Source of the DNA: Escherichia coli
GTDB lineage: Bacteria > Pseudomonadota > Gammaproteobacteria > Enterobacterales > Enterobacteriaceae
NCBI RefSeq assembly: GCF_003334785.1
Contig: NZ_QOWV01000058.1
Direction: 5' to 3' (one strand)
DNA length: 1,930 nucleotides
This document shows, in pieces, positions 160 through 1,805 of the stretch (position 1 is the stretch's first letter; every line of letters begins with the position of its first letter). The notes beneath the pieces are model-generated. The model made no database searches and was not told the origin of the DNA. It saw only the letters and a list, made by a program, of their open reading frames with translations. The translations under genes and the position numbers were made by a program.

Positions 160-267
160 ACAGATTTTGGTGACTGCGCTCCTCCAAGCCAGTTACCTTG
201 GTTCAAAGAGTTGGTAGCTCAGCGAACCTTGAGAAAACCACCGTTGGTAGCGGTGGTTTTTCTTTAT
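160..267 (+). ncRNA. RNAI: Antisense copy-number control RNA I (about 108 nt) of a ColE1-family replicon
   Basis: Starts ACAGATTTTGGTGACTGCGCT as in ColE1-family RNA I. It ends in a stem-loop ACCACCG-ttggtag-CGGTGGT followed by a T-run, and the length matches the canonical 108 nt. Confidence 0.85.
237..266 (+). terminator. RNA I intrinsic terminator (third stem-loop plus U-tract)
   Basis: Perfect 7-bp stem ACCACCG (237-243) / CGGTGGT (251-257) with a 7-nt loop, immediately followed by TTTTTCTTT. Confidence 0.75.
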
Positions 268-371: not shown

Positions 372-1412
372 ATGGCACAGAACCCGTTTAAAGCACTAAA
401 TATCAATATTGACAAGATTGAGTCTGCTCTGACGCAGAATGGCGTCACAAACTATTCCTCTAATGTAAAAAACGAAAGAGAAACTCACATATCTGGCACA
501 TATAAAGGAATAGACTTCTTAATAAAACTAATGCCATCAGGCGGAAATACCACTATCGGAAGAGCGTCTGGGCAAAATAACACTTACTTTGATGAAATCG
601 CCTTGATTATAAAAGAAAACTGTTTGTATTCAGACACAAAGAACTTTGAATACACCATTCCAAAATTCAGTGATGATGACAGGGCAAATCTATTTGAATT
701 TCTTTCTGAAGAGGGGATAACAATAACAGAAGATAATAATAACGATCCTAATTGTAAACACCAATATATTATGACCACCAGCAATGGTGACAGGGTCAGG
801 GCAAAAATTTACAAGCGCGGCTCTATTCAATTCCAAGGAAAATACCTTCAAATCGCGAGTTTGATTAACGATTTCATGTGCTCAATACTAAACATGAAAG
901 AGATTGTCGAACAAAAAAATAAAGAATTTAATGTTGACATAAAAAAAGAAACTATTGAGTCCGAGTTGCATAGCAAACTACCAAAAAGCATCGATAAAAT
1001 CCATGAAGATATCAAAAAACAGCTATCATGCTCGCTAATAATGAAAAAAATAGATGTCGAAATGGAAGATTACTCAACATACTGCTTCTCTGCATTAAGA
1101 GCCATAGAAGGCTTTATATATCAAATACTTAATGATGTTTGCAATCCATCATCATCAAAGAACCTTGGCGAATACTTCACTGAAAACAAACCCAAATATA
1201 TAATCAGAGAAATACACCAAGAAACTATAAATGGTGAAATAGCGGAAGTTTTGTGTGAATGCTACACTTACTGGCATGAGAACAGGCATGGTTTGTTTCA
1301 TATGAAACCAGGAATAGCTGACACGAAGACAATTAACAAATTAGAATCAATCGCAATCATCGATACCGTTTGCCAATTAATAGATGGTGGCGTAGCTAGG
1401 TTGAAATTATGA
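372..1412 (+). CDS. rnlA: RnlA/LsoA-family endoribonuclease toxin (RNase LS-like, HEPN-type), 346 aa
   Basis: Long ORF starting at the first ATG after an in-frame stop. C-terminal motif ENRHGLFHM (R305-x4-H310) fits the HEPN R-[NHD]-x3-H signature. LRAIEG (aa 242-247), GEYF (aa 266-269) and the R-H-x-LFHM block match my recollection of RnlA/LsoA. A downstream 126-aa partner overlaps by ATGA, as in rnlAB/lsoAB. Family call is from memory, not a database search. Confidence 0.7.
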   Translation: MAQNPFKALNINIDKIESALTQNGVTNYSSNVKNERETHISGTYKGIDFLIKLMPSGGNTTIGRASGQNNTYFDEIALIIKENCLYSDTKNFEYTIPKFSDDDRANLFEFLSEEGITITEDNNNDPNCKHQYIMTTSNGDRVRAKIYKRGSIQFQGKYLQIASLINDFMCSILNMKEIVEQKNKEFNVDIKKETIESELHSKLPKSIDKIHEDIKKQLSCSLIMKKIDVEMEDYSTYCFSALRAIEGFIYQILNDVCNPSSSKNLGEYFTENKPKYIIREIHQETINGEIAEVLCECYTYWHENRHGLFHMKPGIADTKTINKLESIAIIDTVCQLIDGGVARLKL

Positions 1413-1789
1413 AAAAAGATAAAAAATATCAAATAGAAGCAATAAAAAATAAAGATAAAACTTTATTTATTGTCTATGCTACTGATATTTATAGCCCGAG
1501 CGAATTTTTCTCAAAAATCGAATCCGACTTGAAGAAAAAGAAAAGCAAGGGTGATGTTTTTTTTGATTTAATAATTCCTAACGGTGGAAAAAAAGATCGT
1601 TACGTCTATACGTCATTTAATGGCGAGAAGTTTTCAAGTTACACATTAAACAAAGTTACGAAAACTGATGAATATAATGATTTATCTGAGCTCTCGGCTT
1701 CGTTCTTTAAAAAAAACTTTGATAAGATCAACGTAAACCTTCTATCCAAAGCCACATCATTTGCTTTGAAAAAAGGCATTCCAATATAA
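1409..1789 (+). CDS. rnlB: RnlB/LsoB-family antitoxin, 126 aa, lysine-rich
   Basis: ATG at 1409 overlaps the upstream TGA (ATGA), with an AGG SD-like element at 1398-1400. Size and position match the RnlB/LsoB antitoxin encoded downstream of its toxin. The segment GDVFFDLIIPNGG resembles a remembered RnlB segment. No MNT (GSxxxG/DxD) or HTH motif is evident. Confidence 0.6.
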   Translation: MKKDKKYQIEAIKNKDKTLFIVYATDIYSPSEFFSKIESDLKKKKSKGDVFFDLIIPNGGKKDRYVYTSFNGEKFSSYTLNKVTKTDEYNDLSELSASFFKKNFDKINVNLLSKATSFALKKGIPI

Positions 1790-1805
1790 TATCAAGCCAG
1801 AAGAC

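Follow-up and report, generated by a model that had tools for sequence, protein, structure and literature searches.

The eight-adenine run in the plasmid-borne antitoxin gene lsoB of Escherichia coli as a by-product of coding composition

LsoA–LsoB of the plasmid pOSAK1 is a type II toxin–antitoxin pair that acts against phage T4 (PMC5308261). Upon T4 host shut-off the unstable antitoxin is lost and LsoA degrades T4 mRNAs, unless the phage Dmd inhibits LsoA (PMC5308261). LsoB neutralises LsoA, and the system acts on T4 dmd mutants, according to Otsuka and Yonesaki (2012) as cited in PMC5308261. In the homologous RnlA–RnlB pair, RnlB, a small and fully folded protein of the alpha/beta type, obstructs the substrate groove of the HEPN dimer (PMC8266594). 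In the papers on LsoA–LsoB that we read, the homopolymer of lsoB analyzed here was not singled out. With respect to such runs in general, a length of nine is where counterselection of slippage-prone A/T runs becomes apparent in many bacterial genomes (PMC1088944), and in reporter assays with the E. coli RNA polymerase, slippage was detected only from eight A or seven T upwards and amounted to about 10% on T8 (PMC6260861). Here we analyze a run of adenines in lsoB that a preliminary description of the same DNA had proposed as a possible hotspot of inactivating or phase-variable indels, while preferring a simple compositional origin.

The window, i.e. the whole stretch of DNA that was analyzed (1930 bases), matches pOSAK1 of E. 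coli O157:H7 Sakai with 100% identity (AB011548.2, positions 830–2759, minus strand), and the identical sequence is also present in dozens of other 3.3-kb plasmids. Bases 1 to ∼300 form the terminal part of a ColE1-type origin and contain the RNAI antisense RNA of this origin (162–265, plus strand; Rfam RF00106, 83.7 bits, E 1.9e-15) and a terminator-like hairpin (233–261). Judging from the RNAI match, the plasmid is a multicopy ColE1-type replicon. The cassette 3' of the origin (40% A, 33% G+C) consists of two overlapping ORFs, and a putative promoter-like site that matches the consensus only, TTGACA-17-CATATT, is located at 319–347. The first ORF is lsoA (372–1412, plus strand), which encodes a HEPN-type mRNA endoribonuclease toxin of 346 aa. 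It was assigned from its annotation and from a full-length match to the PDB entry 5HY3_A (residues 1–346 of LsoA against residues 1–346 of chain A, E 3e-234); it also matches RnlA chains (phmmer, E 2.3e-14).

The second ORF is lsoB (1409–1789, plus strand), the type II antitoxin gene of the LsoA–LsoB pair (126 aa), whose ATG overlaps the lsoA stop codon (ATGA). Residues 20–114 of LsoB match positions 2–94 of the 94 in the Pfam model RnlB_antitoxin (PF15933, E 4.7e-18), an identical protein bears the name ‘Antitoxin LsoB’ (LSOB_ECO57) and the label LsoB is found in dozens of identical records. The Pfam match and these annotations agree with the earlier placement of the tract in an antitoxin gene. 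Against PDB sequences (phmmer), LsoB gave a marginal match to RnlB only (E 0.39, residues 18–71), and an NCBIfam scan of LsoA and LsoB returned zero families above threshold. The toxin gene preceded the antitoxin gene in the window and in every homologous locus fetched. In some records (H3 and H4) lsoA is missing from the annotation; we considered a frameshift as the reason and rejected it, as the gene spans the record start and is unlisted in the gene table. The locus is therefore the published LsoA–LsoB anti-phage toxin–antitoxin module, and it is already known as such.

When the lsoB frame is read from the ATG at 1409, the sequence at the tract is TTT AAA AAA AAC, i.e. F100-K101-K102-N103. 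The tract is thus a run of eight A (1709–1716, plus strand) that comprises codons 101 and 102, both AAA, and extends two bases into codon 103 (AAC). Its start at 1709, its position inside the antitoxin frame and its coding of FKKN had all been given correctly in the preliminary description, but its length had not: an A9 had been reported at 1709–1717, while base 1717 is C and the quoted nine-A string, TTTAAAAAAAAAC, is absent from the window. An A9 is also incompatible with the FKKN translation that accompanied it, since TTT AAA AAA AAC holds eight A. The count matters because nine is the length at which counterselection is evident (PMC1088944), whereas A8 is at the detection limit of slippage by the E. 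coli polymerase (PMC6260861).

Several other homopolymers are present on the same (plus) strand. Upstream of lsoA there is an A7 run at 324–330, in the spacer of the promoter-like site, and an A8 run at 349–356, which directly follows the promoter-like −10 hexamer and precedes the lsoA ATG by 16 nt. Within lsoA, A7 runs are found at 913–919 (CAA AAA AAT) and 941–947 (ATA AAA AAA). These four runs are located exactly where they had been reported. Two more of the reported runs are real but had been placed one base off: the A7 in lsoA is at 1044–1050 (ATG AAA AAA ATA) instead of 1043–1049, and the A7 in lsoB is at 1588–1594 (GGA AAA AAA, G-K-K, codons 60–62) instead of 1589–1595. In addition, lsoB contains a T8 run at 1557–1564 (GTT TTT TTT, V-F-F, codons 50–52) that had been missed.

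We compared the numbers of A runs with two different null models. At the nucleotide level, dinucleotide-preserving shuffles of the region 300–1795 contained 2.8 ± 1.5 runs of at least seven A compared to the 7 observed (P about 0.01), and a run of at least eight A was present in 74% of these shuffles. At the protein level, where synonymous codons were shuffled and both the protein and the codon usage were kept, the observed and expected numbers were close to each other: 2 versus 1.9 for A≥7 runs in lsoB, 1 versus 1.38 for A≥8 runs in lsoB and 3 versus 2.0 for A≥7 runs in lsoA. LsoB contains 18.9% Lys and eight KK dipeptides, its 24 Lys codons are divided 19:5 between AAA and AAG, and the gene consists of 41% A. 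As the synonymous shuffles reproduced the counts, the runs follow from Lys–Lys dipeptides together with the preference for AAA. The reading that had been preferred from the outset, ‘AT-rich, lysine-rich composition’, is therefore matched by the codon-aware shuffles. We consider it highly probable that the tract is an incidental A8 run without a function of its own, produced by a conserved F-F-K-K-N-F peptide that is written with AAA twice and then AAC in an A-rich gene. The AAG codons in a KKKK stretch of lsoB also raised the idea of selection against A≥9 runs in this gene; this was rejected as not significant, because the longest run was eight or less in 33% of the synonymous shuffles.

The predicted products show that a frameshift at the tract would truncate the antitoxin. 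The A7 allele encodes ...FFKK-TLIRST and ends at 108 aa, while the A9 allele encodes ...FFKK-KL and ends at 104 aa; in other words, a one-base deletion (read as the −1 frame) adds six residues and a one-base insertion adds two before the stop. Either change would replace the last 23–24 residues of LsoB, among them 13 positions that are invariant in the family (N108, L111, S113, A115, T116, S117, F118, A119, L120, G123, I124, P125 and I126), and the shift also removes the last 11 positions of the Pfam RnlB_antitoxin domain. We modelled LsoB with AlphaFold2 from a 14-sequence alignment and used the model, which is of low confidence (pLDDT 61), for secondary-structure placement alone. Residues 101–103 were placed at the end of a helix (86–106), before the predicted C-terminal helix 109–121, which a shift would remove. 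The best PDB match of the model was RnlB (6y2p_C, probability 0.96); with a TM score of 0.44 this match is weak, and the model itself is of low confidence. Conservation and the low-confidence model together suggest that the truncated LsoB likely loses its antitoxin function.

Tract length in finished sequences was followed with allele probes of 87–89 nt, in which A7, A8 or A9 was placed between 40-nt native flanks, so that a one-base difference lowered the identity below 99%. The locus was present in 75 records of the plasmid collection; 67 of them matched the 88-nt A8 probe exactly, one matched the A7 probe and none matched the A9 probe. When pE110019_5, which has A8 together with a deletion at 1748, is included, A8 was found in 68 of the 75 records. 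In seven plasmids (pig-derived, 3319 bp) the tract reads TTT AAA AAG AAC, i.e. the run is interrupted by a synonymous A>G change and the LsoB protein (WP_000710826.1) stays the same. The sole A7 record, CP043013.1, is an unannotated sequence of 3770 bp with a 459-bp tandem duplication of window positions 1335–1792; one of the copies has A7 at 1709 and A5 at 1769, and in the second copy both runs are of native length (A8 and A6). This A7 carries the signature of assembly noise, and an intact lsoB is present regardless. Among 58 complete E. coli genomes carrying the locus, the probes detected zero A7 and zero A9 alleles. A search with exact flanks and a variable gap between them found one metagenome contig identical to the entire window, the A8 included, and gave zero matches among GTDB species representatives and IMG/VR, a yield too small to extend the census.

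The other length differences in finished records were all one-base deletions in homopolymers, mostly within three records. There were six such deletions in pE110019_5, three in RCS48_pII (NZ_LT985247.1; runs at 349, 941 and 1557), two in CP043013.1, one in RCS49_pIV (NZ_LT985257.1; run at 1044) and one in pFRIK804-03, whose sole difference is an A7 at 349. Such clustering, with deletions as the only direction of change, is what under-calling of homopolymers in long reads typically produces. Thus, when tract lengths are compared across plasmids and isolates, as the preliminary description had suggested, the length proves to be invariant in finished genomes, and a tract length that is essentially fixed argues against a phase-variable or preferred site of inactivation.

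These data bear directly on the possibility that the tract is a phase-variation (contingency) switch, in which a reversible change between A8 and A7 or A9 would toggle the antitoxin and free LsoA in a subpopulation. All that favours such a switch is the occurrence of an 8-nt homopolymer within coding DNA and the truncation predicted from a shift. However, no ON/OFF polymorphism was seen among the 133 finished records, and the run is broken synonymously in seven near-identical plasmids and in most diverged lineages, hence it is not maintained by selection. Moreover, the OFF state (a truncated LsoB with an intact LsoA) would be expected to poison its own cell, any switching would be damped on a multicopy plasmid, and at eight bases the run falls short of the nine from which counterselection of slippage is seen in many bacterial genomes (PMC1088944). 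We therefore regard a switch as extremely improbable.

We then compared lsoB homologues with 65–87% nucleotide identity from E. coli, Salmonella, Klebsiella, Hafnia and raw assemblies. The peptide is kept as F-F-K-[K/N]-N-[F/Y], with F99, F100, K101 and N103 invariant in the 14-sequence alignment. In contrast to the peptide, codons 101–103 occur in seven spellings: AAA AAA AAC (pOSAK1 and Hafnia), AAA AAA AAT, AAG AAT AAC, AAA AAG AAT, AAG AAA AAC, AAA AAG AAC and AAG AAA AAT. Only two of the seven produce A8, and the A8 run is kept in only three of ten diverged lineages. The T8 run and the A7 run at 1588 are more widely kept than the A8 run at 1709–1716 and are broken in more distant lineages. 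A conserved peptide with varied codons indicates that selection acts on the amino acids, and that the homopolymer comes and goes by synonymous changes. That such changes break the run in close as well as distant relatives does not fit the hotspot proposal.

Next, a collection of 15 billion proteins was queried for exact matches to the predicted frameshift products. Intact LsoB was present on at least 1000 contigs. The exact A9 product (104 aa) was found on two Logan contigs and the exact A7 product (108 aa) on one contig, which is CP043013.1. Overall, about six contigs carried A7 or A9, three of them with further homopolymer indels. The sequencing runs concerned include ERR13763642, ERR14839611 and SRR2187257 for A9, and ERR4088844 and ERR10497967 for A7. 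Hence the tract length is invariant in finished genomes, but in raw-read assemblies it is nearly rather than strictly so. In L031 (ERR13763642) and L032 (ERR14839611) A9 was the sole difference, and lsoA was undamaged over the part covered. Three extra A7/A9 contigs had 1–5 other differences, nearly all of them homopolymer indels: in L034, A9 occurred together with T7, and in L035 and L040, A7 was one of four or five homopolymer indels.

Length variants of the other runs were similar in number to those of the A8 run at 1709–1716, or more numerous. About 10 contigs carried the T7 product of the lsoB run at 1557–1564, a T8 that was invariant across seven compared sequences, and 6 contigs carried the A6 product of the lsoB run at 1588–1594. 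Among the runs examined, that of lsoA at 913–919 was the most variable, with its A8 (+1) product on 30 contigs and its A6 (−1) product on 17; for ±1 products together, this means 47 contigs compared to 3 for the antitoxin A8 run. No length variants of the 913 run were found among the 75 finished plasmids. The corresponding numbers for the lsoA runs at 941 and 1044 were 5 and 1, and at most 10 and 1, respectively. When the 913 run is set aside, toxin-null and antitoxin-null variants were about equally rare. This similarity fits sequencing error, since selection would purge antitoxin-null plasmids with an intact toxin. Several variants also come from the same run series (ERR148395xx–396xx and ERR104979xx–981xx), which points to a project or platform effect. 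A 52-aa protein that could be taken for a ‘T9 product’ (20 contigs) was rejected as evidence: it is a prefix of LsoB that pairs with 74-aa ‘partial’ proteins in the same assemblies, and the two therefore derive from contig breaks inside the T8 run.

Could the tract nevertheless be a real mutational hotspot? The A7 and A9 contigs would then be true slippage mutants, fixed or heteroplasmic, and frameshifted antitoxin genes would appear in the plasmid population at an appreciable rate, with wild-type copies complementing them in trans. This would agree with A9 being the only difference in L031 and L032, as a +1 change is atypical of long-read deletion error, and a multicopy ColE1-type replicon lets recessive variants persist. 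Slippage also predicts that every indel lies within a homopolymer, as was the case in all records, but homopolymer sequencing error predicts the same pattern. Furthermore, the variants cluster in a few records with several homopolymer indels each (six in L003, five in L035, and four plus two substitutions in L040), sequencing runs of the series ERR148395xx–396xx recur among them, the A7 of CP043013.1 adjoins an A8 copy of the same sequence, and the 58 complete E. coli genomes contained neither A7 nor A9. An antitoxin-null allele with an intact toxin was about as frequent as toxin-null alleles at comparable runs, which fits error better than selection. The raw-assembly variants of the tract, which are no commoner than those of other runs and often stand alongside other homopolymer indels, thus count against the hotspot that had been proposed, and we consider it unlikely. 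If the A7/A9 contigs are real low-level mutants, the tract would be an ordinary slippage site under purifying selection and no regulatory device.

Across public records and assemblies we located about fifty indels in this A-rich cassette, all of them in mononucleotide runs and nearly all of these in runs of at least five bases. For this reason, a ‘frameshifted’ lsoA or lsoB in a long-read or draft assembly is best regarded as a probable homopolymer error pending confirmation.

For ribosomes to slide on A stretches that encode poly-lysine, runs of about A11–12 are needed, longer than the one in lsoB. Programmed recoding could still be imagined in two other ways, as −1 ribosomal frameshifting at A AAA AAC or as transcriptional slippage at A8, either of which would give a second LsoB isoform. 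A AAA AAC is a slippery heptamer of the X XXY YYZ type that is positioned in the lsoB frame (the end of codon 101 and codons 102–103), and slippage of the E. coli RNA polymerase begins at about A8 or T7 (PMC6260861). On the other hand, the alternative frames stop after 1–6 codons, so that the products would be 104–108 aa long with no extended ORF, and neither the heptamer nor the run is conserved among homologues. The sequence that follows (1717–1800) has a folding energy of −10.7 kcal/mol (z = −1.57), and an equally good fold was obtained for 15 of 200 shuffles, i.e. there is no significant structure in this segment. Slippage of the host polymerase on poly(A) of this length was no higher than the limit of detection, and T8 would offer a better site (PMC6260861). 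Recoding at this tract is thus hardly credible.

We therefore return to the A8 run as an incidental feature and consider how its length may stay fixed. Homopolymers of 8 nt have a somewhat raised rate of replication slippage, and as for any such run, slippage at the A8 tract is probably somewhat raised. A shifted LsoB would probably leave the LsoA RNase uninhibited. A mutant plasmid copy would stay recessive as long as drift had not made it frequent within a cell; beyond that point, free LsoA would inhibit the cell, so that A7 and A9 mutants may be purged by selection or survive only as a recessive minority of the copies. The fixed tract length in finished sequences could be a result of this purging or minority status; recessiveness on a multicopy plasmid and inhibition by free LsoA would together explain the fixed length without any function of the tract. 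Over evolutionary time, synonymous changes between AAA and AAG make and unmake the run.

We also considered a joint scheme in which slippage at the T8 (1557–1564) and A8 (1709–1716) runs, at the DNA or RNA level, would continually yield a small fraction of non-functional antitoxin templates in multicopy pOSAK1, tuning the LsoB:LsoA ratio near the threshold for quick firing of the toxin on phage infection, and in which the A7 run of lsoA at 913–919 would be a genuine recurrent hotspot of toxin inactivation in natural isolates. This scheme is speculative and very improbable. Should natural variation of the run at 913–919 prove genuine, it would provide a minor case of a toxin decaying through slippage with the antitoxin preserved. 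In all, the tract is a compositional by-product in a fully characterised gene and nothing suggests that it acts as a genetic switch. Its consequence is small, as the module is published and the homopolymer is a by-product of composition.

Finally, we compared the locus with known systems. At simple-sequence contingency loci, phase variation occurs through homopolymers in Neisseria, Haemophilus and Campylobacter. The lsoB tract resembles them in being a coding mononucleotide run in which a ±1 change truncates the product. It differs in that the run is shorter, shows no length polymorphism among isolates and is not conserved at synonymous sites; moreover, the loss of its product is predicted to harm the cell, and lsoB is carried by a multicopy replicon. 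With the A9/T9 transcriptional-slippage sites of Thermus dnaX and IS elements (Baranov et al. 2005, PMC1088944) the tract shares a sense-strand coding poly-A, but it has eight A instead of nine and is without an ORF to fuse to. While the runs of IS elements are preserved among homologues, that of lsoB is not. The pair RnlA–RnlB of E. coli K-12 (PDB 6Y2P) is like LsoA–LsoB in its PF15933 antitoxin, its toxin family, the toxin–antitoxin order and the match of the LsoB model to 6y2p_C, whereas the antitoxins are only distantly similar (E 0.39) and rnl is chromosomal while lso is plasmid-borne. The closest system is LsoA–LsoB of pOSAK1 itself, for which the LsoA–Dmd structure is available (PDB 5HY3): it is the same locus as that in the window, with no difference between the two.

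Among public draft and raw assemblies, frameshift variants were far commoner at the A7 run of the toxin gene lsoA (window 913-919) than at any of the other runs examined in this cassette. Lengthening of this run to A8 yields a 183-aa product, which we found in exact form on 30 contigs, and shortening to A6 yields a 189-aa product that was present on 17 contigs, including the one encoding the E. coli DEC3A protein EHU66038.1. Neither the A8 nor the A6 variant of 913-919 occurred in any of the 75 finished plasmids that carry the locus. The many variants of this run could represent real decay of the toxin, clonal inflation or sequencing error.

Toxin truncation by a base substitution was observed in the Salmonella plasmid NTP16 (NC_002090.1), where a C>T change at window 1020 converts lsoA codon 217 from CAG (Q217) to TAG. 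The toxin is thereby cut to 216 aa while the antitoxin gene lsoB is intact, and the 216-aa product is present in nr as AAA72311.1. NTP16 further carries GC>CG at window 1395-1396.

Two records illustrate errors that probably arose in sequencing or assembly. In one divergent plasmid of the RnlA/RnlB family (L024, Logan ERR4565617), all three A7 runs, one intergenic, one in the toxin gene and one in the antitoxin gene, are one base shorter than in its closest relatives, and therefore both genes are split. This record shows systematic homopolymer under-calling that generates apparent double pseudogenes. The other, CP043013.1 (3770 bp, unannotated), carries window 1335-1792 twice in tandem at its positions 2023-2944, a duplication of 459 bp. 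Three single-base gaps distinguish one copy from the other, among them those in the A8/A7 and A6/A5 runs, and the duplication is most likely an assembly artefact.

Length variants were also found in several records at two runs upstream of lsoA. The lsoAB cassette begins immediately downstream of a ColE1-type origin, whose RNAI (162-265, plus strand, Rfam RF00106) has a terminator-like hairpin at its end (233-261). A promoter-like site, TTGACA-17 nt-CATATT, follows at 319-347 and matches the consensus at 10 of 12 positions. The first part of the spacer is taken up by the A7 run at 324-330. Just past the site, before the lsoA ATG at 372, comes the A8 run at 349-356. In the TST3 lineage the run corresponding to 324-330 is A8, as opposed to A7 in its relatives. 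Plasmid pFRIK804-03 differs solely by having A7 at 349-356. A change in spacer length could alter expression of the operon.

Within lsoB, synonymous codons interrupt A runs at two places. In seven 3319-bp plasmids of pig origin (CP057376.1 and six whose Quebec host strains bear the name Res13), an A>G change at window 1714 turns codon 102 from AAA to AAG, which splits the A8 run at 1709-1716 and leaves the LsoB protein unaltered. Codons 42-45 (window 1532-1543) spell KKKK as AAG AAA AAG AAA, which precludes the A13 run that would stand here otherwise, and the same spelling was found in 85%-identical lsoB homologues. Over lsoB as a whole, avoidance of runs of at least nine was not significant in synonymous shuffling (P = 0.33).

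The preliminary description had listed tracts of A, and its list left out a T8 run in lsoB at 1557-1564 (V-F-F). The product of a T7 frameshift at this run occurs on about 10 contigs from public draft and raw assemblies, and in the NCBI WGS contig ALNX01000133.1 the T7 is the sole difference. In several draft assemblies a contig ends exactly inside the T8 run, giving paired 'partial' LsoB proteins of 52 aa and 74 aa. For E. coli RNA polymerase, slippage is likelier on T8 than on A8 (PMC6260861).
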